DNA of 64,000 nucleotides from Eledone cirrhosa (lineage: Eukaryota). A program made the position numbers and the translations under genes. Shown piece after piece: positions 12,380 through 64,000 of this stretch. The DNA lies in contig OZ024744.1 of NCBI GenBank assembly GCA_964016885.1, positions 68,448,001 to 68,512,000 on the forward strand, written 5' to 3'. Within the stretch, counting starts at the first letter, position 1. Each line of letters starts with the position of its first letter. Under the pieces are notes generated by a model, which was not told the origin of the DNA, did not search any database, and saw only the letters and a program-made list of their open reading frames with translations.

Positions 12380-13504
12380 GCTTTCTTTATTAACCACAAG
12401 GGTAAAAGTGCACAATGGCAAGACTAATTTAACAATGAACATATAAAAAATATCAAATAAACTATGCATAAATATAACAAAATATATTCCCCGAAAGGGG
12501 TGGACGACCCCGGGGTGACTCAGGTACCCCACCAATCCTGAACCACCCGGCACTTCTAGGGCACCCAGGGAGAGCACCCCTCTCCTCAAGTTAGCTAGAC
12601 TATAGGCGCATGGTCAGAGTAGGCCCATTGACACGGGCCATTCTCGCCACATTCATCCACCTTTTAGCAAATGTACTGGGGGACACCACTTCTCTCTCCA
12701 CCCTCATCTTCCTTTCCAGGTGAAACTTTAAGAAGTTGATGAGGGATTGGCTGAAGATAAAATTGTCTGTCTTCAGTCCTTTTAATCTGGTCCACCATAT
12801 AACCTCTTTCGCAACCGCCACCAGACAGGAAAATTTCCTGCTCTTCCATACCTAAGGAAGGTGGGGGGTCGATCTTCACTATGGACTCGGCCGATAGCCG
12901 GATTCGTTCCACACGCGGCAGTAGCTGTTCGACATAACTCCACAAGTCAGTAATGCACGGACATTGAACAAGTGCGTGCAGAACGGTTTCGTCGTTCTGT
13001 GCGCATCTTGGGCAGGTCCGTCTGACAGCACTTCTGTGCCTGTAGAGTTTATCCCGAACCGGCAGTGCCCCCCGGTAGCACTGCCAAGCGAGGGATTTCT
13101 GGAAATTGTCCATCGTCCCAGGGTCGAAAGTCCTCCAGTACAGACTGGTCAGTTCCACTTCGCCGAGGCCCAAAGCTTCTTCGAGTGCGTCATCGCACTT
13201 GCCCACCACTAATCCTCTATAGAACTCGAGAGTGAAAGTTCCACTGATCGCATTGCCCGCTTGGTAGAGGGCAGTCAGTGCCTGGCAACATTCCAGGTGG
13301 TAGTCACCCAGTCTTGTTCTCTTCTTGACCCAGGACTGCAGTTCAGTCAAAGAAACGAGCTGCGGAAAGGCCCGTCTGACAAACGGCGACCACACCTGTT
13401 CACCGTTTAGGCAGAATATCTGGAGATGTCGCAGCCTCAACCCATGTCTGCGCATCATTAGCCACGGCATTCCCAGCCCTCCGCGTAGAGGGTGCTGGCA
13501 GCAG
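12380..13504 (-). mobile_element. Tx1-clade LINE copy A, 5'-truncated (ORF2 C-terminus plus 3'UTR)
   Basis: zf-RVT-type CPRC..ETVLHALVQC; closely similar to copy B; AATAAA near the 3' end; (AAT)n on both sides. Confidence 0.92.
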
Positions 13505-14064
13505 ATAATAATAATATATATGTGTGTGTGTATTTATTTCATCAATCTCGTAATGATGACAGACGCATTTGGTTTCGGCCTTTTTAGAACATGGAACGTA
13601 AAAGACCATTAGTGAACACCGCGATGCATTTTGTCCGCCACTTAAATGATTCTGTTCATCCACTACATAAAATAAAGAAACATGAAGCCAAGTTAATTGC
13701 ACAAGATGGCTACAAGAATAACTCATTCAATTCTCAGACAAAACGTAATAAAAGATCCAAACGAACAAAAGAGAAAAAATATATACTGAAACGTAACCCG
13801 CTTAATCAGCGATGGACAATTTCTTCAGAAGGTGGTCGACCTAATTCACAAAGAAAAGTTCAAGGATTACCAAATATAAATTTGTTTTAATTGCAGTATG
13901 GAACTCAATGTGTATGTAACTCCTGAAGAAATCGTAGAGGAGCCGTAATGACATACAGCATTTCATGGGTATTTTTACCACCTGGGGGAGCCCATCTCCT
14001 TTCCATAGCATGTGAGAGAGACAGGGGTGAATTGAGGAGGAGATATAGAGGAAGAATCGACTCC

Positions 14065-15860: not shown

Positions 15861-15894
<34 letters not shown>

Positions 15895-16172
15895 TATGAT
15901 TTCATTTATTGGGCACAAGGGCTGACATATAGGGGACAATACAAAAGATTGGGACAGTGGGGTTTTACAGAAAAATCGAGTAAACAATATGAATAAACAA
16001 AGTAACAATAACAAAGTAACAATAAAGTAACAAGAAAATTACAACAAGAAAAAATTCCCCAATAGGGGGGATGACCACCTAGGGTTCGCTCAGGTACGCC
16101 ACCAGTCCTGAACGACCCGACGCTTCGAGAGCACCCTGGAAGGGCACCCCTCTCCTCTTCAAATTTACCTAC

Positions 16173-19100
16173 CTACAGCCGCATGACCAGAGTAGGCCCA
16201 CTCACACGGGCCATTCTCGCCACATTCACCCACCTTTCAGCAAATGTACTGAGGGGCAGCACTTCTCTCTCCACCCTCACCTTCCTTTCCAAGTGAAACT
16301 TGAAAAAGTTGATGAGGGATTGGCCGAAGATAAAATTGTCTGTCTTCAGTCCTTTCAATCTCGTCCACCATACAACCTCTTTCGCTACTGCCACCAGACA
16401 AGGGAAAATTGCCTGCCCTTCCTGGCCAAAAGAAGGCGGCGGGTCGATCTTCACTATGGACTCGGCCGATAGCCGGATCCGTTCTACACGCGACAACAGC
16501 TGTTCAACATAAGTCCACAAATCAGTAATGCACGGACACTGGACGAGTGCGTGCAGAACGGTTTCGTCGCTCTGCGCGCATCTCGGACATGTCCGTCTGA
16601 CAGCACTTACCGTGCCTGTAGAATTTATCCCGAACCGGCAGTGCCCCCCCCCCCCCCCGTAGCACTGCCAAGCGAGGGATTTTTGGAAATTATCCATCTC
16701 CCCGGCTCGAAAGTCCTCCAGTACAGACTGGTTAGTTCGACTTCGTTGACTCCCAGAGCCTCTTCGAGTGCGTCATCGCACTTGCCCATCACTAATCCTC
16801 TATAGAACTCGAGAGTGGAAGTTACACTGACCGTATTGACCGCCTGGTAGAGGGCAGTGAGTGCCTGGCAACATTCCAGATGCCAGTCACCCAGTCTCGG
16901 TCTCTTCTTGAACCAGGACTGCAGCTCAGTCAAAGAAACGAACTGCGGAAAGGCCCGTCTGACAAACGGCGACCACACCTGTTCTCCGTTTAGGCAGAAT
17001 ATCTGGAGATGCCGCAGCCTCAGCGCGTGCCTGCGCATCATTAGCCACGACATGCCCAGCCCTCCACGTAGAGGGTGCTGGCAGCAGATGGACCGCCTCA
17101 CCAGCGGAACCTGACCCCTCCACAAGAATTTGAAGAGGAACCGCTCCAAGATGGCGAGGCGCGAACGGGGCAAGGGACGACAGTCAGACGGTAGTATATG
17201 ACGGACGCGATGTACGCGTTCGCCACCTCCGCCCGACCTTTCAGTGATAGCTTCATCCCAGCCCATTTCTGGGTGAGACTGACTACCCTGCCCGTCACCT
17301 CGTCCCAATTCTTATCCACCTGGAGGTCTGGCCCGAACCAAACCCCTAGCAACTTTACCGGTCCGTCCGTCCAGCGCCTAACGACGCTGTTGGACGGCAT
17401 GGACTTGCCTCTCCAGGTGCCGAGTTGCAAGCCTACTGACTTTTTCGGGTTAAGGTTTGCTCCCGTCAACCTTTCATAATCCTCCAATAAGTTACCGACC
17501 ACCACGATTTCTGAGGTGTCCGACACCATCACGGTGATGTCGTCCGCATAAGCCGACACAGCCTTTCCGCGTCCCTGTTTGAGCTGGATGCCCTGCAACA
17601 GCTCCAGCTTCCGCAGTAAAGGCTCGCGAGTCATTACGTACAGAAGGGAGGAGAGAGGGCACCCTTGACGGACCGATCGGGAGACCTGAAACGGTTCCGA
17701 GAGGTGGCCATTAATTTTGACCACCGAGCAGGTGCCGCTGTGCATTGCAGTGATCCAGCTTCTGAAGACGGGGCCGAAGCCAGCCGCCTTGAGGACAGCC
17801 TCCAGGTACCGATGGTCGACCCTATAGAATGCTTTCGATTGATCTAAATTGATCTGAGTCCCACCGAAGCCAGGTTTTCACCCTACCCTCTCTATGATGT
17901 ATCGCATTAGGTGGAGGTTGTCGTGTATAGACCTGGTTGGGATTGCGCAAGTTTGCGCCTCCCCAACCAAATCCCCGACGACAAGCGCCAACCTCTTCGC
18001 TAATACCCTGGCCAAAATCTTAAACTCTGTGTTGAGCAGAGTTATGGGTCTGAAATTGTCTAATGTGTCCCTCTTGTTCTCGTCTTTCCTTATCAGCGTC
18101 ACTACGCCCCGGCTCACAGAACTGGGAATACTCCCGTTTTGCTGCCAGTTGCAGTAGAGGGCTTCGAGGAGATTGGAGAACAAGTCTGGCATATTTACGT
18201 AAAGCTCGTAGGGCAGACCATCCAAACCGGGTGACTTGCGCCTCATGAAGCCTACAAGGGCATCCTGAATCTCGGCTGAAGTAATTGGCCTTTCGCAGCG
18301 CCCAGCGTCAGCCGTCGAGAGTTGCAGCAAGCCATCGAGGTAGGGACTGAAGTCCGCCACCATCTCTGACTCGCCACTTCCCCCGAACAACCGAGCAAAA
18401 TGTTGGCGAAAGGCCTCACACATCCTCTTGGAATCGCTCAGCTCGAGCCCGTCTCGGTCCGTCAAAGACCGAATCGTGGTGTTATTACCACGCTGCGCCT
18501 CTGCCACGCGGGCCCATTGAACAGCTTTGGTTCCCTCGTTTCTCAGAGCACGCGCCTTAGCTCTGACAATGCAACCTTCGTGTTTCGCATTGAAGAAATG
18601 GTCTAATGCCATTCTGGCCGCTAGCACATCAGTTGCAATGCCACTACCAATAGCCTCGTCTAACTTATCTACCAACTCTCCCTCCTTTCTATTTTTCTCT
18701 AATGCTACTTCTTTGCTAAACTCTATCGACATTACTCTAATCTCTCTTTTGAGAGCCCCCCACCATCTATTGTTGACGACTCCCCCTGTCAACTTTTTCT
18801 TAACTAAATTGTTGACCTGGTCCCTGTAAGCCTTACGTGCCGGAAATGACATGTTTAGCTTCCAGTAACCAGGTCCTAACCTACGTGTCTTATCTAGGTC
18901 GACCATACAGATCACAAACTTGTGATCTGAATAGGCGACCGTTTCAAAACGTGGACAGCTTACACTATTTCTGTCTATTTTCCTAATGAATATCCTGTCT
19001 ATATACGATCTAGATTACCCTATGCCGTTAGCCCAGGTCCACACTGGCGCATTAGGGAAATCTAGTCGGTACCTGTCAGACAGTTGGAACTGGCTGATCA

Positions 19101-19601
19101 GGTTCTTGAGGCTTTTGCACCCCCCGCTCCTATTGGATACTCCCACACAGTCCCAGCGTGCGTCTAAGATGCCGTTCCAGTCCCCCGCTAACAGTAAAGG
19201 GCGAGACGTATCCAGAAAGGCTTCCAGGCGTTTAAAGAAGTCCGACCGTCCTGCCCCAGTAGGAGAATAGACGGCCACCAGTCTAAAGGCACCACCTTCA
19301 TTATTGTTCACGTCCAGGACCACCAACTTCCCGTCCGGGTCCCGGAAGATCGACCTTACCTCGAGATCCAGGCCTTTCCTAAACAGCATTGCCACCCCGC
19401 CTCCCATTCCCGGCTGGCTAACAGATGCAAAGATCTGATAGTCGTCGAAAATGGGGGCTAGTGCGCGCGTGTCGGAAAAATGGTCTCGCTGACTGCAATT
19501 ACATCCATTTCTATAGACCTGAGGTCGTTGAGCAGGTGACCCTGCTTCCAGGACGATCCCAGGCCTCGAACATTTAAACATCCTACTCTTAATACGGTCA
19601 T
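16173..19601 (-). pseudogene. Tx1-B ORF2 (APE endonuclease + reverse transcriptase + CCHC), frameshifted
   Basis: MTVLRVGCLNVRGL, GDWN, SDH, GPGYWKLN, KSPGLDGLP, NFRPITLLN, QGCPLS, YADD, CPRC..H..C spread over several frames. Confidence 0.93.
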
Positions 19602-19632
19602 GTTAGCAGGTTAAACAGAGAGAGAGGAAGGT

Positions 19633-21602
19633 TTACTTACCTTCCGGGCTCTTGTGAAGGTCGGGTTGTTCGACTTCCATAGTTAGTGGAGTTTGGAACC
19701 CCTTTAAAAGTCTTGAAGTAGGTTTTACGTTCGGGGTTCCCACGTCCCGAGGAAAGCTGTCTCGTATTTCTTTGAATATGTCGAGCGACATTCGCACCAG
19801 AATCAAATCTTCCGGCACGCGAAATGTGCTTGATTTAAACATTTCCCCCTCTTTTTGTATATTTTCGCTTCGTGCTATGAGGGCCATCAGTTCCTTGTTG
19901 GTCCTCCTGACGAGCACGAAGTTTTGTATGTTTTGTTGATGTGATTTTATTTGTTTGCGTGACTGTGGTGGTGATGGATTTGGTGGTGTTGTTTCGGTTG
20001 TATCTATGTTTGTTGTGAGTGCGATGTCTGTGGTTTCAGATGTTTGTGTGTATATTTGTTCTTGCGTCTGTTTCAGTTGTTTGCGTTTGGGGGATTCTGG
20101 TGATGGTGATGGTGGTGTTGATGTTATTGGAGAGATGTTTGCGTGGGTGGTGTCTGCGTTTTTTTTTATTGTGGGTGCTTTTGTGCTTTGTTGAGTTTTT
20201 TTTTTCTTTTTGTGTTTCCTTTTTTGTATTTTGGGGGATTTGGGATTTCCCTCATCTTCACTACTGGTAGATGAGGGGTCTGTGTCTGTAAGTGTGTTTG
20301 TATGTATGTTTAAGGTTTTATTGGTGTGTGTATTTTTGGGGGGGAGGGGGGAATTTGACAGCTTTCCTCGTTTTCCCCCTGGGTGGTCAATGTTGGTGGT
20401 GTTTTTTCTATTGGTGTTGTTGTTGGTGGTTTTGCCGATGCAGGTGTTGGTTGTGGTCCCGCCCCGGCGTCGGCAGCAGTGGAGCCTTTCGACCCCTTGC
20501 CTCTTTCAGCAGTTGAGGGCAGAAGGCTGGCAAATGGGTTTTTCCCCCACAAACAAAACACTGCGGTCTTTTGCCTTCGGTCATAATGTGAATGACAGTC
20601 CCATTCTGAAGTCGGATATGGTCTGGGATTGTCTTCACATTCTCGGGCCTGATCTGGAGAAGGATCTCCAGGTCAACCCCGGACCAGTCCTCTCTGGCCG
20701 TTCTGGTCACTTCTATAGGGACTGTATCCGTCCCCTCCACAATCACACATCCCAGAAGCCACCGCATGTCAAGTCCTGGTGGGATTCTGGGAATGCGGAG
20801 ACGGGTCGTTCTTTTTTCCATGTGGGAGGGGTACATTATGACCTTGCTGGTTTTGCAAGGAGTCATGGCGTGTTTCATCGCGAGCGCTTCTGACTTGAAC
20901 AACACCGAAATGGTGCCGTACTGTCTGCCCCTCTCTATGTACTGGGTGTCTTCTCTGATGCACCTCAGCGCGACTTCGATATCTTCTTGTGGGATTAACG
21001 CTGCCTTTTTGGTCTGTGCTGAGATGCATCTATAATGCACCGTTTTGCGCTCCACTGCCTCAATAGCTTCTACCGGGACAGTTAAGTTGGCCCAAGTTTG
21101 CTCTTGCTTGATGAGCTTCCATGCCTGGGCCAACTTTTCATCTTTGTTTGAGAGGTCCATGTTGAAGCATGGCCTCTTTTTTGCTGCTGCCGCAGCAAAA
21201 GTAGTCTTGTTTTCGTTGGGGATGTTGTTGACGTTGTTCTTGTTGGTGTTGTTGTTAGCACTGTCGCTGTTATCATTGTTGTCTTTGCTGCCACCGTTGT
21301 TCTCGGTGCAGCTGGTATTGTTGCTATTGGTGTTGTCGCTATTTGTTTTCATGTTAGTGGTGTTGATATTGTTGTTGTATTTGTTATTTTTTTTTTTGTT
21401 ATCTGTATTTTCGTTGTCGCTGTTACTGTCATTTTTTTTTCAAATTAGAGTTCTTATTGGTATCATTGGTGTCTTTGTTTACCTTGTTTGTGGTGGTGTT
21501 TGTGTTATCAATGTGTGTTAATTTCGCTATAGCGCTCCTCTCAACTTCTACGTCGTTGTCGCACGACAGCCGACATATCGCTGGGGGACGTGGCTCAGCC
21601 AT
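19633..21602 (-). pseudogene. Tx1-B ORF1 (Asn-rich N-terminus, RRM-like region, zinc knuckle), frameshifted
   Basis: CFVCGGKTHLPAFC (CX2CX4HX4C); the terminal frame ends ..PEGK*. Confidence 0.85.
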
Positions 21603-21808
21603 GTTTTTTTTTCTTCGTAAATTTTTTAACATGTAAAGAAAAGTTAAAATATTTGGGCCAAGAGGCCCAAATATTATACTTTCCCCTTCACGGGGCAAAG
21701 TCTAAGGGCTTATATCCCTTACACAACAAGAAATATTTAACAACAAATAATTTAAACAGGCAAATAAAGCGACTTACTGTGAGCGAGCAAAATACGTCCG
21801 CTTAGACC

Positions 21809-21841
<33 letters not shown>

Positions 21842-22144
21842 TTCTTTATTGGCCACAAGGGCTGACATCAATAAAAACATTACAGACGGCACAGGACGGT
21901 ACAGGAGGGTACGATGTGGGTTTTGTGCGTGTAAATATTTTTATTATTTATAAAAGAATAGAAAAAAAAAGGACATAGAAACATATATATATATAAACAA
22001 TAAAAATGAAAATTGAAACAAGGAAAAATTCCCCAATAGGGGGGGAAACCTCCGAGGGTTACTCGTGGCGAAAACCACACAAAAGACCACGGCCACCCTG
22101 ACCACCAGGGCAAGCGACCTCTCTCAATGTTTCCATCTCTCAAA

Positions 22145-25100
22145 CTACAGACGTATATTCAGAGCGGTCCATTTCACTCGGACCATTCTCGCTACATTCA
22201 CCCACCTTTCAACAAACTTGCTAGAGGACAGCACTTGCCTCTCCACCCTGATTTACCTCTTCAAGTGAAACTTGAAAAGGTTAATTAGGGATTCGCCGAA
22301 GAGGAAAGTGTCTGTCTTAACCCTTTTAACCTTGTCCACCACACAATCTCTTTCGCCATGGCCATCAGTCAGATGAAACCCGCCTGCCCTTCCTCCTCGA
22401 AGGAAGACGTCGAGACCATCTGCACAATGGACTCAGACGATAACCGGATCAGTCCTAACGCGACAGCAACTGTTCGACATAGCTCCACAAGTCAGCAATG
22501 CTCGGACACTGAACGAATGCGTGCACGACGGTTTCGTTGCTCTGCACGCATTTCGGACAGGCTCGGCTGACAGCATTTCCGTGCCTGTAGTGCTTATCTC
22601 GAACCGGCAACGCTCCCCGGTAGCACAGCTAGGTCAGGGATTTTTGGAAGTTATCCATAGGCCCTGGGCTGAAAGTTCTCCGGAAGAGAGCAAACAGCTG
22701 ATCTTCTTCGACGCCCAGGATCTCTCCGAGAACGTCGTCACTCTTCCCCTCCACTAGTCCTTTATAGAACGCCGAGGTGGATGTTCGACCGATACTGGTG
22801 CCCAGCTGGCAGAGGGCAGTGAACGCCTGGAGACATTCCAGTTTCCAAGCGCTATCAAGGAGACGAGCTGTGGGAAAACGTGCCTGGCGAACGACGACCA
22901 CACCTGTTCACCGTCAAGGAAGCACCAGAGGTGTCGCAGCCTCAGCGCATATTTGCGCATTATCAGCCATGGCATGACCAGTGCTCCACGCAACGGGTGT
23001 TGACAGCAGATGGATCGTCTGACCATGGGAGCGCGTCCCTTCCACAAAAAGCGGAAGGGAGGCGCTCCATTTTAGTGAGAGCTGGGCCGGGGCAAGGGAC
23101 AACGGTGAGGCGGTAGCAGATGACGGATGCGATGTACGCATTCTCCACCTCCGCCCGGCCTTTAAGGGACAGCTTCCTCTCGGCCTATTTCTGGGTCAAG
23201 GAGGCCACCTTGCTCGTCACCTGGTTCCAGTTTTTCTCCATCTGGAGGTCCGGTCCGAACCAGACCCCGAGCAATTTAACCGGACCGTCCGTCCAACGCC
23301 CCATGATGCTGTCGGACAGCATGGACTTGCCTCTCCAGGTGCCGAGCTGCAAGCCCACCGACTTTTCCTGCTTTATCTTTGCTCCTGTCACTGCTTCGTA
23401 TTCCTTGAGAGCGATGCCGAGCATCTGGACGTGTCTGGTGCTCGACACCACCACGGTGACGTCGTCGGCGTAGGCCGACTCGGATTTCCCGCATCCTAGT
23501 TCGCGTGGGACGCCCCTCATCGCCCCCAGTTTGTGCAGTTACGGCTCGAGAGCCAATACGTACAAGAGGGACGAGAGGGGGAATCCCTGGCGGACCGAGC
23601 GCATGATGCTGAACCGCTGCGACAGGTGACTGTTGACCCTCGCAATCGAGCAGATGTCGCTGTACATCGCAGCGATCCAACCCCTGAAAACGGGCCCGAA
23701 ACCAGCTGCCTCGAGGACCGTCGCCAGGTAACGATGGTCGACCCTATCGAATGCTTTGGATTAATCCAAGTTGATCAGGGCCCCACCCGTGCCAGGTTCC
23801 TTAACCACCCTCTCTATGATGTATCGCATGAGGTGGAGGTTGTCGTGTATGGATCTGTCCGGAATGGCGCATGTATGCGCCTCTCCCACCAGACCCTTCA
23901 CGAAAAGCGCTAACCTCGTTGCTAACACCTTGACCAAAATCTTGAACCCTGCCTTTAGCAGGGTTATGGGCCTGAAATTATCGATAACATCCCGCTTGTT
24001 CGGGTCTTTTCTCAGCGGCGCCTCCGCTCCCCGGCTCACAAAACTGGGAATGCTCCCGTTCTGCTGCCAGTTGCAGTAGACGTCTGCCAAGAGGTCACCG
24101 AACAAGTCTGGCATAAATGCATATAGCTTGTAGGGCAGACCATCAACACTGTGCTGCGGTCGTCGAGAGACGAGGCAGTCTGTCGAGGTATGTATTGAAG
24201 TCCATACACCGATCCGGCCCGCCGCTGCTCCCGAACAGTTCAGCAAAGTGCTGCTGAAAAGCTTCGCACATCTCGGGTTCGAGCAACACGCGCCCGTTTT
24301 GATCAGATAAAGACCGAATTGTGGCTTTGTTGCCACGTCGTGCCTCTGCCACCCGGGCCCATTGGACGGCTTTTGTCCCCGCGTGTTTCAGAGCACGCTC
24401 TCTAGCCCTGACAATGCAGCCTTCGTGTTTTGCGTTGAAGAATTGGTCGACTGACAATCTTGCCGCAAGCACGTCGTTTGCGATGCCTGTCCTAAACGCC
24501 TCTTCTAGCTTTCTGATTAGCTCTCCCTCTACTCTATTTTCCTCTTTCACTAGTCCTTTGCTAAACCTAATCGACTCTACTTTAATTGCCCTTTTCAGGG
24601 CGAACCACCACCTGTTGTTTACGACCGCTCTCCTCAACGCCCGCTTAACTAATACGCTAATCCAGTCTCTGTAGGCTTTGCGCGCCGGGAAAGACACGTT
24701 CAGCTTCTAGTAAACGGGTCCTTGTCTGTGCAGTCGACTATTTTAAATTGTGGACAACCTATACTAGCCTTATTTAGTTCTCTGCAGAATACCCTATCGA
24801 GATACGATCTGGATGACCCGATACGGTTTGTCCATGTCCACATTGGCACATTCGGATGATCCAGTCGATACCTGTCAGACAGTGCAAAACGTCTGAGCAA
24901 GTTGGTGAGGCTCTTGCACCCTCCTCCCCTATCCACTAGCCCCACACAATCCCAGGGTGCATCCAAGATACCGTTCCAGTCGCCCACTAACACTAAAGAG
25001 CGGGACGTTCGAAGAAAGGTCTCTAGACGTCTAAAGAAATCTGGCCGTCCTGTCCCTGTCGGAGCATAGACGGCTACTAGCCTGAAAGCGTTGCCTTCGG

Positions 25101-25401
25101 TGCCGCTTACGTCCAACACCACCGACTTACTTTCTGGGTCCAGGAAGATGGTCCGTATGGCGAGACCCAAGCCTTTCCGAAACAACACAGCCACTCCGCC
25201 CCCCGCTCCCGGACAGCTCGGAGATGCGTACACCTCGTAACTGTCGAAGATCGGTGCGAAAGCTTGCGTTTCGGAGATTCTCGTCTCACTGATGGCCACC
25301 ACATCTATGTTTAGTGACCTGAGATCGTTAAGCAAGTGACCCTGCTTCCAAACCGAGCGCAAGCCACGCACGTTTACACTTCCGATCCTGAATACGTCCA
25401 T
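22145..25401 (-). pseudogene. Tx1-C ORF2 (APE-RT), disrupted
   Basis: MDVFRIGSVNVRGL, GDWN, YLDR, NFRPITLL, YADD; contains deletions and frameshifts. Confidence 0.9.
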
Positions 25402-25433
25402 GTTGGGTGCGGAACGGGGCAAGTGAGAAAGGA

Positions 25434-27251
25434 TCACTTACCTTGATCGTCTGGTGAAGGGACCGTTGAATCGTCCCTTCGGCTGGTCGTCGGCTCTTCT
25501 GTGAGTATATCGGAGTATACTCTCCGGTTGAGTGCCCCCCTCCTAGGTCTCTGAAATCACCAAAATTTCATTTTAATGTTTGTGTATTGTTTCTGTGATA
25601 TTCTTACCAGTCTTATGTTCGTTGGTGTTTTGATTGGTGCTGGTATTATGTTGCCGTGCTGTGAAATGTCTGCGTGTTCAATTATGTAAGTCATTAGTTT
25701 CTTGTGTGTATTTATTGCTGTGCATTTCTATTTCTGGGGGTGGTGTGTGGTTCTGCTATTTTCTTGTTGTTGCTGCGTGTGTGTGTTTTGTTGTGTTTGC
25801 GAGGTTGGTGTTTGTGGTGGTGTTGCTGAAGGTGTTGTTGTTGTTGGCGGTGGGGTTGCCGCCGGTGGTGATGGTGGTGCTAGTGTGGGTGGTGATGGTG
25901 TTGGTGGTGTTGCTGCTGTAAGTCTCTTTGCAGTAGCCTTTGCCCTTTTTTCATTTCTTCCCTCCCTTTTCGAAGGCTACGATGCGCTGCTTCTGCGTTT
26001 GTGCCTTCTTGCGACCTTTTGTCATCCCTCTCCCACCTCACACTCCATGTCCGATTCTATGAGGTCGGGGAGGGGTTCCATCTCCACTCTTTCACTTGTT
26101 GTTGTTTGTGATGGTTGCAGTGGAGTCGCTGTTGCATCTGCAGTTGGTATTACTGTTGTTGTTGTTAATACTTCCACTGCTGGTGTTGTTCTTGATTTCC
26201 GTGGCGTGGGTATGGGTGCCACGGACCTATCCTTCCTGGTTGCCGCTTGTCCTGTTGCTGGTAGCCGTGGAGCCGGTTTCGGAAGGAGGGTTTTTTTTTC
26301 TTTTCTCAGGGCCTTCTCATTGCAGAAAGCCCTGAGGTGAGTCTTCGACCCACAGCGAAAGCATTTCGGACGTTTGCCCTCAACACTTATGGGAAGTTGA
26401 GTGCCGTTATCGAAGTCTATCACATCCGGGATAGCTTCGATACACTCCTGGTTGGTTTGAATTAACATCTCAATGGAGGCGCCGACCCAATCTTCTCGTA
26501 CTTTTTTCTGTACTTGCAGTACGGTTGTTTTGTCCTCGTTTCCGACGAGGACAGACGCGGCCAGCCAACAAGGGGCCATCCCGGGGGAGGGGGGACTTGG
26601 GTCAGTTTGACCCTCACAATATTTTGCCCGCAGTAGGAGGGCACTAACACAATTTCCTCGCTCCTTAGGTTCACTAAGGATTCAGCCTTTGCCTCCCGTC
26701 GTGTGGCAAAAAGCACGTCCACGGTGGCACATTTCTTGCCTCGGATGATATGCGTTTTCCGCTGCCACACAGACCCTAAGGCTTTTTGTATTTGAGCCTC
26801 TGTGGCTCTTTCAACCCTACGTGAATTTGTGCTTAGTGTACGGTACGTGACCGGTACAGTGCTGTTGGGTTTCGAAAAATTCTTCGGCTGCCTTGCAGAT
26901 CACTCGGTTACCGGTTTTCGTCCCCATCTTCCTTGCTTCCTGTAATTCCTCATTTGTTATAAGGATGGTTTCCAGGTTCTTTGCGATATCTGCAAACGAG
27001 ATTGGGTTTTCTTTCTTGTTGTTGTTGTTGACGTCAGTGCTGCTGTTACTTTTGTTGTTTCTGCTGGTACTAAGACCACCGCCGCCGCTGTTGCTGTTGA
27101 TGTTGTTGTTGTTGCTAAACTTGTTATTGTTGTTGCCACTGCTGCTGTTGTTGTTTATGCTGCTTCTGATGTTGTTGCAGCTGCTACTAGTATTTTCCTC
27201 GCCACTGTTGTTGATGCTGCTGCTGTTATTACGGCTGCTGCTATTCTTCAT
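25434..27251 (-). pseudogene. Tx1-C ORF1, frameshifted
   Basis: Asn/Ser-rich N-terminus, CFRCGSKTHLRAFC knuckle, ends ..DDQGK*. Confidence 0.82.
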
Positions 27252-27522
27252 GACGTCAGACGAATGAAATGGCTTTCCGTATTTACCGCACACGTCTTTC
27301 GTCGTTGTCGTTGTCGTGGAGAAATGTTCCACGGTACGCGCGTTCTCTTGATGAAGAACGCTAGGAGAAAGTACATTTTTCTTTTTCTTTAGTGGCGTCG
27401 CTTGCGAAAGAGGCGACAGAGGCGAAACCACATTTAGAGAAGGGAGGGAGAGAGACAATCTTTTCTCTGACGTAATGATTACTATACCTTACAGAGCCGA
27501 GCCTCCGTCAACCATGGCATTC

Positions 27523-28592: not shown

Positions 28593-29319
28593 CTCCAAAA
28601 CCTTCTCAATTATGAATAAATACAAAAAAAAAAAGAAACAAAACAACCCATGAAAATGTAACGTGATGTCTATATAAATAAAAGCCCAATCGTGTCCGCC
28701 CGTCCGTGTGTCAGTCCGTTCGTGAGATGAATGAGTTCAAACGAAAGAAGATCGATAGTAAAAATTCTACGTCGAAAAAAATATCAAACAGCATTTCAAT
28801 TTTTGCACAAAGCTCTGTGTGAGTTTCTGTGTGTGTGTGTGTGTGTGTGTGTGCATGGGTGCGTCTGCGCGTGTGTGCGTGTGTGCGTCTGGGTGTGTGT
28901 GCGTCTGGGTGTGTGTGTGCCTGTGTGTGTGTGTGTGAATGCATGAATGCGTAAAAGGAAGGAAGGGGAACGGTGTAGAAATCTATGCTCTCTGTGAGTG
29001 TATGTGTCTCCAAAGGAGAATGAACTGAATATGTCTAGTATTTTAATAAAAATAAGCATTAGTACCATTGACATGGTAAACATAGAAGACATAGTTTTAG
29101 TGTTGTTCATATGTAACTTAATAACAGATACATTAACTATTTACCTTCTCTTACACAACTCTCTTCATACTCCTTCACACACATACACTTCTCTCCCGTT
29201 ACTTATTGCACCTTCCCAGTACAATATCTGAGCTAAACTCTTAACCGAAGGTCACACATATCATTAACATTATCAACTGGATAGTTTACTACATGATATA
29301 TACCCCCTTACAAATCACA

Positions 29320-29601
29320 TCCACCAACAACACCAACACCGCCACCACAACCAACACCAACACCACCTCCACCACCATCAACAACAACACTGCCACCACT
29401 ACCAAACCACCACAACCACCATTACCACCATGTCAATCAAACAACACCTCCACCAACACATCCACCAACAACACCAACACCACCACCACCACCACCACCA
29501 TCACCAGCAACAACACCTCCAACACCACCACCATTATCAACACCACCAGCACCACCACCAACACCAACAACACCACCACCACCACCACCACCACCACCAC
29601 C

Positions 29602-29656
<55 letters not shown>

Positions 29657-29664
29657 CCACCACC

Positions 29665-29710
<46 letters not shown>

Positions 29711-30035
29711 CCACCACTACCACCAACAACAACATCACCACCACCACCACCACCACCACCAACAGCAACATCACTACCACCACCACCACCACCAACAATA
29801 ACAACAACAACATCACCACCCCACCATCACAAACACCACCACCACCAACAACATCACCACCACCAACACCAACAACAACATCACCACTACCACCACCACC
29901 AACAACAACAACATCACCACCACCACGACCACGACCACCACCACCACCACCACCAACAACAACAACACCACCACCAACAACAACAACAACAACACCACCA
30001 CCACCACCAACAACAACATCACCACCACCACGACC

Positions 30036-30066
<31 letters not shown>

Positions 30067-30440
30067 TCACCACCACCACGACCACCACCACCACCACCAC
30101 CACCACCACGCCCAACAACAACAACAACAACATACCACCACCACCACCTTCCACCACCATCAACAACAACAACATCACCACCACCACCAACAACAACAAC
30201 AACATACCACCACCACCACACCACCACCACCACGAACAACAACAACGACAACAACAACAACACCACCACCACCACCACCACCACCACCATCAACAACAAC
30301 AACAACAACATCACCACCATCACCACCACCACCAACAACAACAACAACATACCACCACCACCACCACCCCCAACAACAACAACAACATCATCACCACCAC
30401 CACAACCACCACAAACACCACCATCAACCACAGCAACACT
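29320..30440. repeat. compound (ACC/AAC)n trinucleotide tract
   Basis: Direct reading of the sequence. Confidence 0.95.
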
Positions 30441-30763
30441 CAACCAAAATTCATTTGACGACAACCCAGCAAACACGACTCGAAATTATCTTAGAAAGTT
30501 CTTTTGAAATGGTTCGACAAACAACGGAAACTGTGACACACATTCATAGAAATAAACAAATAAATAACAACAACAAAAATAGGCAATTATAAGACCCACC
30601 ACCCAAACACACATCCAAACACCAGCCTCCCTCCCTCAAAAAAAAAAAAACCCTATAAACTATTATATAAAACAGCAAAATTAATAATAAAAGTAACGGA
30701 AACTGTGACATGTTAAGAACCAACAAACAAACAAACAAAGGTAGTTATTACAACAACAAACCC

Positions 30764-30985
30764 TCGTCGAGGTTAACTTTGCCTTTCATCCTTACGGGGT
30801 CTATAAAATAAAGTACCAGTAATGTACTGACTAATTGCTGGCCTTGTGCCAAATGTAGAAACAGTTATTAGCACAGTTACGCCGAGGTTAACTTTGCCTT
30901 TCTTCCTTACGGGGGTCGATAAAATAAAGTACCAGTAATGTACTGAGTAATTGCTGGCCTTGTGCCAAAAATAGAAACAGTTATT
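30764..30985 (+). mobile_element. two tandem 5'-truncated SINE copies
   Basis: GAGGTTAACTTTGCCTTTC..GGCCTTGTGCCAAA..AGAAACAGTTATT present twice. Confidence 0.8.
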
Positions 30986-31094
30986 ACAACAACAAACAAC
31001 AAATGCGAAAAGCAAGAGAATAAGTGATTATATAAAACAAAACAACAACAATAACTATAAAAAAAAAAAACAACCAAAATATCATTGACTTTCC

Positions 31095-31453
31095 CCACCA
31101 CCACCACCACCATCACCACCGCCACTACCACGATCGCCAACACTACCACAACCACCATCAACAGCACGCCGACGTCCACCATCACCATCACCACCATCAC
31201 CAGCACTACCAGCACCACCACCACTACCACCACCACCACCATCACCATCACCACAACCACCACAACCACCACCATCACCACAACCACCACCATCACCATC
31301 ACCAGCACTACCAGCACCAGCACCACCACCACCACCACCACCATCACCATCACCATCACCACCATCACCAGCACTACCAGCACCAGCACCACCACCACCA
31401 CCACCATCACCACAACCACAACCACCACCATCACCATCACCAGCACTACCAGC

Positions 31454-31484
<31 letters not shown>

Positions 31485-31624
31485 CCATCACCACCACCAC
31501 AACCACCACAACCACCACCATCACCACAACCACCACCATCACCATCACCAGCACTACCAGCACCAGCACCAGCACCACCACCATCACCATCACCATCACC
31601 ACCATCACCAGCACTACCAGCACC

Positions 31625-31655
<31 letters not shown>

Positions 31656-31862
31656 CCACCACCACCACCACCATCACCATCACCAGCACTACCAGCACCA
31701 CCACCACCATCACCACCACCACCATCACCACCACCACAACCACCACCACCACCATCACCATCACCAGCACTACCAGCACCACCACCACCATCACCACAAC
31801 CACCACCATCACCATCACCACCACCACCATCACCACCACCATCACCACCACCAACAACAACA
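31095..31862. repeat. (CAC)n tract with higher-order CACCAGCACTACCAG units
   Basis: Direct reading of the sequence. Confidence 0.95.
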
Positions 31863-32244
31863 CGACTTCATATACCGAGTCAAACGACGAAATTCGTTTT
31901 TCTTTCGTGTGTTGATGCCAAGCATTACATACAACCCATTGAACGTATTCACTAGACCTGCTAGAAATGACAGCCAAAACTCTTTCAAATCATACCCGCA
32001 GCTTTTTTTTTTTTTTTTACAAAAGAATGATTTCCTGTTTTAACTATGGTTACAAAAGAACAATGTGGTCGTGCATATAGTAAACAATATATATACATAT
32101 ATTTATATATATATATGTATATATTTATATAGATGTGTATATGTATATATATATATATATATATCCTTTTCCACCGGCCTTTTCTACGGTTACTTTTTTG
32201 CATGTGTCTTTCACCTGTGTCTTCCCACGATGGGACCTGTACAC

Positions 32245-32694
32245 TTTTCTTCTATTCCTTTCCTAATTTTCCCCTTTTCCCTTCCCCCTTTCTTCCTCTC
32301 TCCTCATATTTTCACCCCTATTGTTCCTCCTTTCCCTCTCTTTCCTTTTCTCTCTCATTTTTTCTCCCCTTTTTTCTCTCTTTCTCTCTCCTTTTCCACC
32401 TGGCCTTTTGATTAATAAAAGGCCTCGGACGCACCCGAACTACACCGATGTCCTGTAATTCAGCGCCGAAACATGGGTTCGGGAAACATTTACAGATGAC
32501 GATGGAAACTCCTTTCTTCCTTTCTCCTCCTGTTCCGTCTTAACCACCATCCTAAACCTTGTTTTTAGTAACCACACAGCTCCTTTCGTTTCATAACGTT
32601 TTGTATTTACCGCTGTGACCCTACCTGCTTTGGTCGATCTGTGTTCCCTCCACACTTTCGCATCAACCCTCCCCTCTCTCTTCCCTTCTCCTCC

Positions 32695-39987: not shown

Positions 39988-40316
39988 AACTTTATCTCTC
40001 TCTCTCTCTATCTCTATCTCTATCTCTCTCCCCCCTCTCTCTCTCAATATATATATATATAGAGAGAGAGATAGATAGATAGATAGATGGATATGTTTCT
40101 TTATTAGCCACAGGGGCACAAAAGAAGGGGGAAGTTTACATACAATAAAAACGTGTAAAATATTAACACAAATGCAAATTAAAAATTAGTCGATTTTCCC
40201 CAATAGGGGGAGACAGTTCATATGGGTAACTCATACCCCCGAAAAAATGTGCAACCCTCATCTCCAGGAGTAAGAAAAGTTTGTATTCCTTTCCTCTCCT
40301 CCTCCTTTTCCTCAAC

Positions 40317-43300
40317 CTACAGGCTGATATAGAGAGAAGGCCCATTCACTCGGGCCATTCTCACCACTTTCACCCACCTTTCATAAAACTTGCTGGGGTA
40401 CAGCACCTCTCTCTCCACCCTGATTCTTCTTCCAAATTGGTATTTGAAAAAAAAGAATCAGTTGTTGGCCAGAGAGAAAGGTGTCTGACCTCAGCCCTTT
40501 TAACCTTGTCCACCATACAACCTCTTTCGCAATAGCTATCACACAAAAGAAAACCGCCTCACTTTCGTTTTTGAAGGAGAGTGGCGGTTTGATTATGACA
40601 ATGGACTCGGTTTCTTCGTCTCGCACGCACCTCGGACAGATCTTTTTTGCAGGGTCCCTGCCCGGGCGCCCATACCTGTAGAGATTGTCTCGAACTGGTA
40701 GAGCTCCTGGGTAGCACTGCCAGGCCAGGGACTTTTGGAAGTTGTCCATCGGTCCCGGGCGGAAGGTCCTACCGAACAGACTGGCCAGTTCATCTTCCTC
40801 TATGCCTAGAGTTTCACCGAGCGCGTCGTCGCACTTGCTGCGGATCAACCCTCTATAGAATGACGAAGTGGAGTCTCCACTGATCGCCGGGACCGCCTGC
40901 CAGAGGGCTATGAGCGCCTGAGTACATTCGATGTGCCAGTCGCCATTTTTCTCGGTTTTTGCTTGACCCAGGACTTCAGCTCGCTCAGCGAGACGAGTCG
41001 TGGGAAGGCTCGCCTCGCGAACGGGGCCCACACCGGTTGTCCGGTTAGGAAAACGTAGAGATGTCGCAGCCTGAGCGCGTGTTTGCGTGTCGTCAGCCAT
41101 GGCAACCCCAGCCCTCCGTTGGAAGGGTGTTGGCAGCAGATGGATCTTCTCACCAAAGGATCCCGCCTCTTCCAAAGGAATTGGAAGAGCGCGCGCTCCA
41201 TTTTGGTGAGCGTTTTGGCTGGGCAAGGCACGACGGTCAAGCGGTAGTAGATGGCGGACGCTATAAAAGTGTTCGCCACCTCCGCTCGACCTTTCAAGGA
41301 TAGTTTGCACTTCTGGGTGAGTGCAAACACCTTGGCCGTCACCTCGTTCCAATTCTCCTCCACCTGGAGGTCCGGACCAAACCAGACCCCGAGCAGCTTT
41401 ACCGGTCCTTCCGTCCAGCGTCCGACGACGCCATCGGAAGGCATCGGTTTGTCTCTCCACGGTCCGAGTTGCAAACTGATGAACTTGTCCGGTTCAGCTT
41501 CGCTCCTGTGAAACTTTCGTATTCCTTCAGTAAGGTGCCGACTTCCTCGATTTGCGAGGCATTCGACACAATTACTGTCTCGTTGTCGGCGTATGCCGAC
41601 GCCGCTTTCCGCAATCCCGGTTCCAGAGGGATGCCCTGCAATAGCTCCAGCTTCCGCAGTAGTGGCTCGAGAGTCAGTACGTAGAGAAGGGAGGAGAGAG
41701 GGCATCCCTGTCGAATGGATCGCGTGATAGGGAACGGCTCCGAGAGGTAGCCGTTCACCTTGACCCTTGAGCAGATGTTGCTGTTGGGCATTGCAGCAAT
41801 CCAGCCCCTGAACACGGGTCCGAAGCCTGCCGCCCCGAGCACCGCATCCAGGTAACGATGGTCAACCCTATCGAAAGCCTTAGACTGATCCAAGTTGATC
41901 GGGGCCCCACCGAAGCCGGGTTTTCACCCTACCCTCTCTATGATGTATCGCATGAGGTGGAGGTTGTCGTGTATGGACTTGGTCGGGATTGCGCATGTCT
42001 GCGCTTCTCCAACCAAGTTCTCGACGACAAGCGCCAGCCTCTTTGTCAACACCTTGGCCAAAATCTGTAACTCTGTGTTTAGCAGAGTTATGGGCCGGAA
42101 GTTGCCTATGTCATCCCCCTTATTCTCGTCCTTCCTGACTAGTGTGACTACGCCCCCGGTCACAGAACTGGGAATTCTCCCGTTCTGTTGCCAGTTGCAC
42201 TAGACCGCTTCCAGGAGACCGGAGAATAAGTCCGGCATTGCTACGTAAAATTTGTAGGGTAGACCGTCGAGACCTGGAGATTTGTGTTTGCCGCATTGGC
42301 TCAGCGTGTACCCTATCTCAGCGGCTGAAATCCGCTTTTCGCAGAACTTTGTCTCGCTGTCCGAGAGTCGCGGTAGGCCGTCGAGGTATGGACCGAAATC
42401 CATAGACCCTCCCGGCGCACCGCACTGCCCGAACAGTTGAGCAAAGTGCCGCTGAAAGGCCGCACACATCTGCTTCGGCTCACGTATCACGCGTCCGTTT
42501 TGGTCATTCAAAGACCGAATCGTGGACTTGTTGCCACTTTTTGCCTCCGTCACTCGGGCCCAGCTAACAGCTTTGGCTCCCTCGTTTCCCAGAGCACGTA
42601 TTTTGCTTCTGATAACGCAGCCCTCGCGCTTTGCGTCGAAGAACTCGTCCAAGGCCGTTCTCGTTGCTATCACGCTGGCTTAGTGGCCTCTTCTACTTTA
42701 TCTACCAGTTCCTTCTCGGTTCTATTTCTATCTAACGTTAATTCTTTACTAAAAACTAACGAGTCTAATCTAACTGCCCTCTTGAGAGAGTACCACCATC
42801 TGTTGTTGACAATGGCCCCTGTCAAGTGCTGTTTAACTAAAGTGCTAACCCGTCTACTGTAGGCTTTGCATGTCGGTAACGACAAGTTCAGCTTCCAGTA
42901 GCCGGGTCCTTGTCTATGGGTTCTATCAAGGTTGGCCATGCAGGTCACTAGTTTGTGATCTGAATAGGCAACCATGAACATTTGTGGACAGCTTAACATG
43001 TCCCTATCCTTATTTCTAACTAGAACCCTATCTAGGTACTATCTAGATGTTCCGCTACGATTAGTCCACGTCCACAGCGGCACAGTCGGAAAATCTAGTC
43101 GATATCTATCGACCAGGTCAAATCGGTCGATTAACTGTTTGAGGCTGTTACACCCCCCCCCCTTTATCGGGACATGCTCCCACATAATCCCAACGTGCAT
43201 CTAGGATTTCATTCCAGTCCCCCACTAAAAGCAAGGAGCGGGACGTTCCCAGAAAAGTCTCTAGACGTTTGAAGAAGTCTGGCCACGGTGTCCTGGATGG

Positions 43301-43641
43301 GACATATGCTGCCACCAGCCTGAAGGCTCCACCTTCACTACCGTCAACGTCTAGGACCACCAGTCGACCCTCCGGGTCCAGATGTGTTACCGTCTGTGTT
43401 ACGAGGCCCAGGTGTTTTCGCAGCAAAACGGCAACCCCGCCCCCACCCCCCGACCGACAGAGACATGCGTAGATCTCAAAGTCATCGAAGATGGGGCCTA
43501 GCTGTCGCTCGCTGTGGATCCTGGACTCGCAAATGGCTACCATATCCATACTGTGCGACCTAGGTTGTTTAAGAGTTTGCCCTGTTTCCAGGGCATCCCC
43601 AGGCCGCGTACGTTCACATATCCAACTCTTATATTGGCCAT
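40317..43641 (-). pseudogene. Tx1-D ORF2 (APE-RT), disrupted
   Basis: MANIRVGYVNVRGL, GDWN, SDH, GPGYWKLN, KSPGLDGLP, NFRPITLLN, QGCPLS, YADN. Confidence 0.9.
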
Positions 43642-43674
43642 GTTGGTGCTGAAAAGTTAAAAGAGGAAAAGAAA

Positions 43675-45589
43675 TCACTCACCCTTCGTCTCCTGGGGAC
43701 CAGGCTGCACGATTTCCATGGCAGTGTTGGAGGGGTTGTCTGGGTGGGTGGTGGTTTGCGGCGGGGTGGGGACGGAGATGTTTGGTGGAGTAGGGTCTGG
43801 TGGGATGGGGGTGTCTGGGGTGGGGAGACATTTGAGAAGGACGCGGTTAAGTGGTTTCACGCAGGAATTCCCCACATCCTTTTGAAATGTTTCTTTTAGG
43901 GACCTATAAGTTTGTATAGGGACCTTAATCAGTTTTAGGTTTAGTTTTTTGTTATTTTTAATAGAGTGGGCGAAAGTTTTCCCTTCGGTTTTCACCGAAG
44001 GGTTGTTTGTGATGGTCTCCATTAGTGTTTTGTTTTCAGTGTTTATGTAAGTGTAAGTGTAATTTTCTTGTGTTTGTTTTTGTCTGTAGTTCTTGTGTGT
44101 GCTTTCGTTTTGTTGTAGGTATTTTGTTTTCAGGAGGTGGGGGTTTTGTTTGTGATGTTTTTGTTGTTTGTGTTGGTGGTTGTAGGTTTGTGGTAGTGTT
44201 TGCTGGTTTTTTGCTTTTGTGATGTCTTTTCTTTCTTTTCGAGCGATGGGGTTCTCCCTCGTCTTCACTGGGTGTTGGCGAGATAGCCTCATTTGTTGTA
44301 TCGTCTGTGTGATTGGGGAGGGGTATGTCTTGGGGAGCTATTGTGTCAGTATGTGATTTTGCAGTGGTTTTAGGTGGAGTGGGGTTGGGTGGGACTGTGT
44401 TTGTTGTGGTTATTTTTGTGTGTTGGTGTTGTTGTTGTTTTGGTGGTGTTGGTGGTTGTGTTGTTTTGATGGGTGTCGGCAGAAGAGGCTTTTTTTATTC
44501 ATTAATTTAGGACAGGAAGCCCTCAGGTGACCCCTGCTAAAGCAATGGTAACATGAAGGCCGCCTACCATCAACCGAAAAGTTTATGTAGCTGAGTCCGT
44601 CCACGACTACACGTTGTGGGATCATAGCTATTCGCTCTGGGCTCATTTGGACCAGAACTTCAATGCTAGTCCCATTGAATACATCTCTGGGGGACTTTCC
44701 TACTGACAGTATTCTGTCTTCATCAAAATTGATGAAGCCGCACAGTATCCACCATATGTTCACCTTAGGTGTGACACTCGTGATTTTAATCTTTTGTGTC
44801 CTTTTTCCCATGTATGTAGGGAAAAAGGTGTACAGGTTGGATACAATTGGCGACACAGAGTAATTTTGGGCCGTCAATTGATCCTTCATGAGTACCGAAA
44901 TACTCCCAAAAAGTTTGCTTCTTTGAATGAATGCAATATCATTCATTGAATTTTTGAAAACCGGTCAATTTCTTTCTGTGACAATTGGACTGGTTTTCGG
45001 GTAGAATTGGAAACTGTCCTAAAAGCTATCGTTTTGAGAGCAGTTTCCTTGCGAATTTCTACCAGAGAATTGATGCTGAAAGCACCATTTCTTTCGAAAG
45101 TGACATATCTCCTAGCGTCCTTTAAAAGTTGTTCGGTATTTGTTATGTCGAGATATGTCAGTTCCTCCTTTTTTTGAACTGTCTGTGCAAAGGAGATTTT
45201 TTTTTTTTTGTGGAATTATCCGTGTTGGTGGTGTTGTCATTATTGTTGTTATTGTTGTTGTTATTCTTGTTGTCACTGATGTTGATATTATTCGTATTTT
45301 CCTTGGTGTTGGTGTTGTTGTCTTTGATGCTGGTGTTATTGGTGTTGTCTTTATTTTTTTCTTTGTTGTTGTTGTCATTGTTGTTTTTATCATCATTATT
45401 GGTGTTGTTGTTATTTTTGTTGTCATTGAACCGTTTGGTGTCATTTGTGTTGTTTGGATATGAATTTGTTTTTACATTTTCATTTCGTCTTTCCATCTCC
45501 ATAGTATCTAGGGAAGAAGACGATGTTGACTGCAAGCTCTGTAGTCTTACCGCCTCTCCACCACCATTATCGTTGAACGCAGCGTTCAT
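43675..45589 (-). pseudogene. Tx1-D ORF1, frameshifted
   Basis: Asn-rich N-terminus, zinc knuckle, ends ..TKGE*. Confidence 0.82.
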
Positions 45590-45815
45590 AACGTAATCAA
45601 ACTTCTTACAATATTTTTTCAAAAATTCGATGGAGAAAAAAATTTTCAAACGAATATTTCGCCCCTGTAGGGTCGAAAATGAGTTGACCCACCACCTGAA
45701 GGTCCAGGCGGGGGATCAAGTTACACAATAATATACAATTTAACTGAAAACTCACGTTTTTTTCTTACATAAAATAACGGAAACTTCTCCGCGAAGTTAG
45801 ACACGTCTGGTAGAG

Positions 45816-63950: not shown

Positions 63951-64000
63951 TGAAAAGGAGGCCATTGAGGTAGGCCTTGGGGAGATCTCGGTCGAGAGAA

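Follow-up and report, generated by a model that had tools for sequence, protein, structure and literature searches.

Drosophila copia makes a gag-only RNA from which the whole of POL has been spliced out (Yoshioka 1990, as cited in PMC5580714), and the plant Ty1/Copia element EVD makes its shGAG RNA from a conserved donor close to where the structural gene ends, the donor being better conserved than the acceptor (PMC5580714). Among long interspersed nuclear elements (LINEs), human L1 has splice sites in its sense RNA that give the SpORF2 and SpIRE products (PMC2896524, PMC5860796), and HAL1 (half-L1) elements consist of open reading frame 1 (ORF1) and a LINE 3' end without ORF2 (PMC5753468). 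Introns are also on record in transcripts of TART (antisense), L1, Tad, Penelope and Athena. Here we analyse a 64,000-nucleotide (nt) stretch of the Eledone cirrhosa genome (assembly GCA_964016885.1, contig OZ024744.1, positions 68,448,001 to 68,512,000), called the window below, in which four related copies (A, B, C and D) of an L1-group LINE all lie on the minus strand. We suggest that some RNA of active members of this family may be spliced from a donor at the end of ORF1 to a 3' terminal acceptor, which would remove ORF2 and leave an ORF1-only messenger RNA (mRNA). We give this proposal about an even chance of being right.

The proposed event resembles that of copia in that an intron of about 3 kilobases (kb) spanning the whole enzyme region would be removed to give a structural-protein-only RNA. 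Copia, however, is a long terminal repeat (LTR) element with one ORF whose splicing has been shown in RNA, whereas ours is a bicistronic non-LTR element known from sequence alone. Like copia, our element has a conserved donor where its structural ORF ends, and an acceptor downstream of the enzyme region is strong in a sister family and weak in copies A-C. The position and the better conservation of the donor are shared with EVD, as may be a U1 site with two roles, which is the case in EVD and a proposed possibility here. Unlike in EVD, where a short intron is coupled to early polyadenylation, no such poly(A) hexamer was found in these ORF2s. In human L1 the donor lies in the 5' untranslated region (UTR) and splicing removes ORF1 or 5' UTR sequence; the products have been called dead ends, and spliced L1 RNAs can be retrotransposed (PMC2896524, PMC5860796). 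HAL1 has the structure expected of a retrocopy of the predicted mRNA, but HAL1 elements are genomic non-autonomous families, and no such copy was found among the window copies and the sister arrays; B, C and D all keep ORF2. The Octopus vulgaris L1-Tx1 LINEs, with 13 recently active families and 421 insertions, are likened to ours by likely host group and class alone, and the strings 'splic' and 'intron' are absent from the main text of that paper (PMC13282606). The papers compared also include PMC1636488 and PMC9341512. We found no LINE that splices out its ORF2 in the open full-text literature, a scope that does not establish absence from print.

ORF1 of copy D ends AAG GGT GAG TGA (T-K-G-E-stop) with the GT at 43682-43681, exactly where the sequence-only reading had placed it. 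This is the sole GGTRAGT on the sense strand of D, and no 31-nt window in the ORF2 of D attains its donor score. Among all GT sites the ORF1-end donor ranks first in B (1/318), C (1/324) and D (1/272), based on an approximate metazoan weight matrix. D differs from B and C at position -2 as well (AGG/GT vs AAG/GT, the slash marking the predicted splice point) and scores 9.7 vs 12.8. A donor as good as that of D was found within 15 nt of the ORF1 stop in only 1 of 29 distant LINEs; these controls came from 80 metagenome-contig loci and 2 genome loci, from which 29 distinct ORF1 ends could be placed and the others were dropped. The C-termini expected from G/GT AAG T are seen in two of the three further full-length octopod-type ORF1 proteins (D-Q-G-K and E-G-K-S).

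The sister family came from a scan of genome contigs that gave 41 loci, 39 of them in animal-like contigs of one bacterial assembly, G001. These contigs are host contamination. Contigs C3-C19 (loci L081-L117 and L120-L133) hold head-to-tail arrays of intact sister LINEs of several subfamilies, an unusual arrangement, with 65 ORF1-end motif matches and 89 ORF2 matches; the ORF2 of this family is about 42% identical to that of the window family, and the contigs and the window have other repeats in common. In all 79 sister ORF1 ends read (overlapping loci being counted more than once, and 2 further regular-expression matches being unrelated DNA), ORF1 ends E-TAA-G/GTAAGT, so that the donor AAG/GTAAGT is found 1 nt after the stop, and in four copies it ranks 1 or 2 of 368-380 GT sites. 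The octopod donor lies inside the last ORF1 codons and the sister donor outside the ORF, while the ORF1 C-termini of the two families are otherwise unalike. Given that the donor is outside ORF1 in the sister family, the protein sequence cannot explain it. The change from GTAAGT to GTGAGT in D, which turns K into E but stays within GTRAGT, had been taken as a sign of constraint at the RNA level. The constraint is supported by the position of the donor in the sister family and by its rarity in distant LINEs, but the change itself is weak evidence, since a single A-to-G change in a decayed copy says little. We believe that the ORF1-end donor is very probably under RNA-level selection.

The same motif could instead be a translation-reinitiation signal, a site for a DNA-level factor, or chance inheritance. 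It is placed in the inter-ORF region, human L1 retains a rarely used donor because of an overlapping RUNX3 site (PMC5860796), and B, C and D are not independent draws because of their shared ancestry. We nevertheless find such explanations improbable, since the retained letters fit the U1 consensus, including the freedom between A and G at +3, while the adjacent letters vary and the spacer is 14 nt long in the sister family but about 35-40 nt in octopods; the single match among the 29 controls also speaks against them.

The 3' UTR of the sister family is 700 nt long, and we compared 9 subfamily types that are 82-96% identical. All nine have a second GTRAGT 14 nt past the ORF2 stop (overlapping the stop where ORF2 runs on, and 40 nt past it in the L106 type), which alternates between GTAAGT and GTGAGT from one subfamily to another. 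All nine also have, 237-263 nt after this second donor (144 in L106), a TAG whose preceding 20 nt include 15-19 pyrimidines. The 48 nt upstream of this TAG are free of AG in 8/9 types, and the letters of the tract vary but stay pyrimidine. The TAG is retained in 57/58 copies read; in the four copies scored it is the top AG site in three and the fourth in the other. It stands 112 nt before a once-per-element GGGGA-T motif (3/4 copies tested), and the octopod ORF2 stop TAG stands 107-115 nt before a like motif; the first AATAAA follows the sister TAG by about 180-210 nt and the octopod stop TAG by 199-262 nt. The two TAGs fell into the same column of an unguided MAFFT alignment, and a sliding-window test found its best match at the acceptor in 2/3 sister copies, a result that may follow base composition. 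Because the sister 3' UTR acceptor is conserved at the equivalent position, we raised our estimate of the splicing model. From these alignments and distances, it seems that a conserved last exon, preceded by an acceptor, is a feature of the clade, and that octopod ORF2 ends exactly on that putative acceptor.

The 3' end of octopod ORF2 fits such a role in several ways. In D it ends CTCTCTATATCAGCCTGTAG at 40317 and is followed by GT TGA, and the joining proposed in the sequence-only reading does give K-G-stop. ORF2 ends Y-T-R-TAG in all four window copies, with a YAG at the stop in 4/4, and a stop in the frame of ORF1 follows the TAG as the first codon in A, C and D and as the second in B, that is, within two codons in 4/4. 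No other AG lies within 26 nt upstream of the ORF2 stop TAG in A, B and C.

In this proposal ORF2 would be lost as an intron of 3.3-3.5 kb, with the ORF2 stop TAG as the octopod partner of the donor. The ORF1 protein (ORF1p) made after splicing would be the same in the sister family and altered in the last residue or two in octopods. The exon junction would be only a few bases away from the stop, so decay would be avoided if the usual 50-nt rule holds in molluscs. The unspliced RNA would encode the ORF2 protein (ORF2p) and serve as the copying template, and genomic copies would keep the intron because the unspliced RNA would be what is copied. The purpose would be to have ORF1p in excess over ORF2p, and the weak octopod acceptor would limit splicing to a fraction of the RNA, as the element needs. 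In a broader form, which we hold tentatively at somewhat less than even chances, the LINE clade would keep spliceosomal introns in its genomic copies and use alternative 5' splice sites to make three RNAs: an unspliced template, a bicistronic RNA without the 3' UTR intron, and an ORF1-only mRNA with ORF2 as the intron. Under the three-RNA scheme, octopod ORF2 would run right up to the acceptor, with its stop codon doubling as the AG.

Several observations weigh against the removal of ORF2. The pyrimidine tract noted earlier as good is indeed so in D (15/20 pyrimidines), but it is specific to D, with 12-13/20 in A-C. As an acceptor the stop TAG ranks 14/71 in A, 42/407 in B, 85/417 in C and 12/357 in D, and it ranks 9/87 among the AG columns common to B, C and D. 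The CAG of D at 40324, 7 nt upstream, outranks it (7 vs 12 of 357) and would give another product. Over the final 60 nt of ORF2, third codon positions are identical at 11/20 vs 35-50% upstream, which is not clearly raised and not significant. On the donor side, the third octopod-type ORF1 protein, XP_036364761.1, ends G-K-K-W-K-Q-N, and the L106-type subfamily, although equipped with the donor and acceptor of the 3' UTR, lacks one at its ORF1 end, which implies either a loss of the site in that type or two gains of it. The second donor of the sister family is a nearer competitor for the acceptor, and sliding-window similarity missed the acceptor in 1/3 copies. No intron-less copy was found among the 79 ORF1 ends and 58 exon-2 starts, although near-identical head-to-tail arrays are a poor place to look. 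Finally, LINEs already get an excess of ORF1p through poor translation of ORF2 (PMC9115989), and splicing is therefore not required for it.

The strength of the donor relative to the octopod acceptor could also mean that the site is bound by the U1 small nuclear ribonucleoprotein (snRNP) without being spliced, preventing early termination, aiding transcription or retaining the RNA in the nucleus. The donor is conserved far better than the octopod acceptor, other motifs resembling donors recur close to the 5' end and 60 nt upstream of the ORF2 stop, and the U1 site at the end of GAG in Arabidopsis EVD suppresses early termination (PMC5580714). We consider U1 binding alone unlikely. The sequence-only reading had offered it as a guard against premature polyadenylation, and this has lost ground: between the donor and the ORF2 stop there is no AATAAA in six copies (B, C, D and three sister copies; one ATTAAA in C), and the poly(A) hexamers are upstream, in ORF1. 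It also leaves the sister 3' UTR acceptor and the in-frame stop after the octopod TAG unexplained. The EVD site is spliced as well (PMC5580714), so both roles can coexist.

Another possibility raised by the acceptor ranks is that splicing from the donor uses one of the acceptors within ORF2 (at 43225, 41808 or 40897) or, in copy D alone, the CAG at 40324 or at 43649, so that an ORF1-ORF2 fusion or a partial deletion would result. Internal AGs common to B, C and D outscore the stop AG (means of 6.4, 7.5 and 7.9 vs 3.6), and splicing to the 43225 site would fuse ORF1, in frame, with the G-D-W-N of ORF2 in each of B, C and D. The sharing of these AGs is expected, however, because they lie within conserved coding sequence, the 40897 AG is missing in copy A, and fusion is impossible in the sister family since its donor comes after the ORF1 stop. 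The TTTTCAG at 43649 is the top-ranked of the 357 AG sites in D; its AG is missing in B and C, and we rejected the very short 34-nt intron that it would define. Altogether we regard these internal acceptors as quite unlikely partners.

If ORF2 is indeed removed as an intron, the consequences reach beyond this family. The ORF1p:ORF2p ratio of LINEs is thought to be set by translation of one bicistronic RNA, and L1 splicing has been described as harmful; splice sites around ORF2 under selection would be a second, programmed way to set the ratio. A LINE would have reinvented the gag strategy of copia, previously known from LTR elements, and would have a one-step route to HAL1-like elements. How the unspliced RNA is exported and picked as template would become a question, and ORF1p would be supplied in trans, contrary to cis preference. 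The proposal predicts an exact junction for cephalopod RNA-seq and ORF1-only retrocopies in genomes. ORF1-rich LINE expression in octopus tissue would then not need to signal retrotransposition-competent RNA.

We looked for spliced products and further relatives in other data. Four contig runs (not recorded as RNA), aligned to D at 80% likeness, covered every bin; no donor-to-acceptor junction was present among the 15 of 2268 joints listed, and no letter differences at the donor among the 40 of 3360 listed. A word-index search for relatives of ORF1 found none among 498 candidates, a second search returned the query alone, and no relatives were found in viral contigs. A 2209-nt contig that carries the ORF1 protein P0198 is near the predicted spliced length, but we did not count it, as P0198 has the G-K end of the unspliced form. 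We also set aside evasion of HUSH by introns, because splice sites alone give no protection (PMC8770142).

Copies B, C and D are 68-72% identical to one another, and A is 86% like B (Table 1). Copy D has at least 4 frame changes and 3 stops in the compared part of ORF2 and several breaks in ORF1; it is a dead, decayed copy that cannot encode intact proteins. Pfam finds Exo_endo_phos in D and B and RVT_1 in B, so that both an APE endonuclease and a reverse transcriptase (RT) are present in the family, and a profile of the relatives best matches human L1 ORF2p (E 1e-111), ahead of R2 (1e-40). A C-terminal zinc region is supported by zf-RVT above the cut-off in the close relative P0003 and below the cut-off in the sister ORF2; Pfam gave no zinc-region match in copy D's own broken ORF2 frames. 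An upstream ORF1 with a CCHC knuckle, an AATAAA at 40105 followed by (TCTA)n, and the lack of LTRs agree with the L1 group. The nearest named proteins belong to Argonauta hians, Octopus sinensis and O. bimaculoides, which points to an octopod host. In an RT tree that has no named Tx1 reference, the octopod and sister families together form a supported clade separate from the other LINEs; within it the octopod copies form one supported clade, sister to a clade of the array family and the L106 type.

Table 1. Coordinates of the copies and of the features of copy D within the window
Feature	Position	Strand	Remarks
Copy D	40090..45810, ends approximate	-	near full-length decayed L1-group (Tx1-like) LINE between (TCTA)n repeats
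Copy B	15885..21810	-	donor AAG/GTAAGT at 19640; ORF2 stop TAG ending 16173, then GT AGG TAA
Copy C	21840..27520	-	donor AAG/GTAAGT at 25441; ORF2 stop TAG ending 22145, then TT TGA
Copy A	12385..13506	-	3' fragment, 5'-truncated; ORF2 stop TAG ending 12600, then TC TAG
Copy D ORF1	43675..45589	-	frameshifted; CCHC knuckle region near 44500-44560; ends T-K-G-E-stop
Copy D ORF1-end donor motif AGG/GTGAGT	43677..43685	-	GT at 43682-43681; top-ranked donor of the element
Copy D inter-ORF spacer, pyrimidine-rich	43649..43674	-	TTTTCAG end in D only; B and C without AG; 34-nt intron if used
Copy D ORF2	40317..43641	-	APE endonuclease, RT, C-terminal zinc region; frameshifts and stops
Copy D predicted intron	43682-40317	-	3366 nt
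Rival acceptor in endonuclease	43225..43244 (D), 19188 (B), 24987 (C)	-	in-frame ORF1-ORF2 fusion if used
Copy D predicted acceptor	40317..40340	-	pyrimidine tract and TAG (= ORF2 stop); competing CAG ending at 40324
Copy D 3' UTR (predicted last exon)	40090..40316	-	GT TGA; GGGGA/T-rich motif near 40201; AATAAA at 40105

Other donor-like sequences are found in these elements. AAG/GTGGGT near the end of ORF2 (window positions 40377, 16233 and 22205; GTGGAT in A, at 12660) is second-best among the donors common to the copies in the window and is also present in both sister types (L084:8634, L106:4709). Its codons read E/K-R-W-V with the Arg always AGG, which may reflect coding constraint or another U1 site. 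A GTRAGT about 35-55 nt from the 5' end is seen in D (45755), in B (21777) and in some but not all sister subfamilies (e.g. L084:3094). In the sister family the 3' UTR seems to retain an intron whose donor and acceptor are conserved (L084:8748-8984, L106:4825-4968). Copy B has nearly the same nine bases following its donor (19640-19632) and its predicted acceptor (16172-16164), with 8/9 positions alike, so ORF1 would end E-G-R when spliced and E-G-K when unspliced; the likeness is also a possible direct repeat for deletion of ORF2.

Each of the four 3' UTRs is predicted to form a short C-rich/G-rich hairpin with a loop of 4 nt (about 40198-40209 in D, with matching sites in A-C) and, upstream of it, a longer, variable stem. 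From these folding predictions the short hairpin is a candidate ORF2p recognition site, which would be kept in the predicted last exon.

Microsatellites flank B, C and D on both sides, though these are three copies only in a repeat-rich genome. The LINEs Kibi and Koshi are assigned to the Tx1 clade. Both target microsatellites (PMC3812793). Copies C and B stand head to tail at 21810-21840 with only a (TTA)n tract between them, an arrangement that resembles the tandem arrays of the sister family. Elsewhere in the window, a fragment of a reverse-transcriptase element lies at 62186-64000 on the minus strand; Pfam gave no match, and its motifs are ones that we take to be Penelope-like. The region 28700-32400 is of low complexity, with strong skew and long open frames on both strands.

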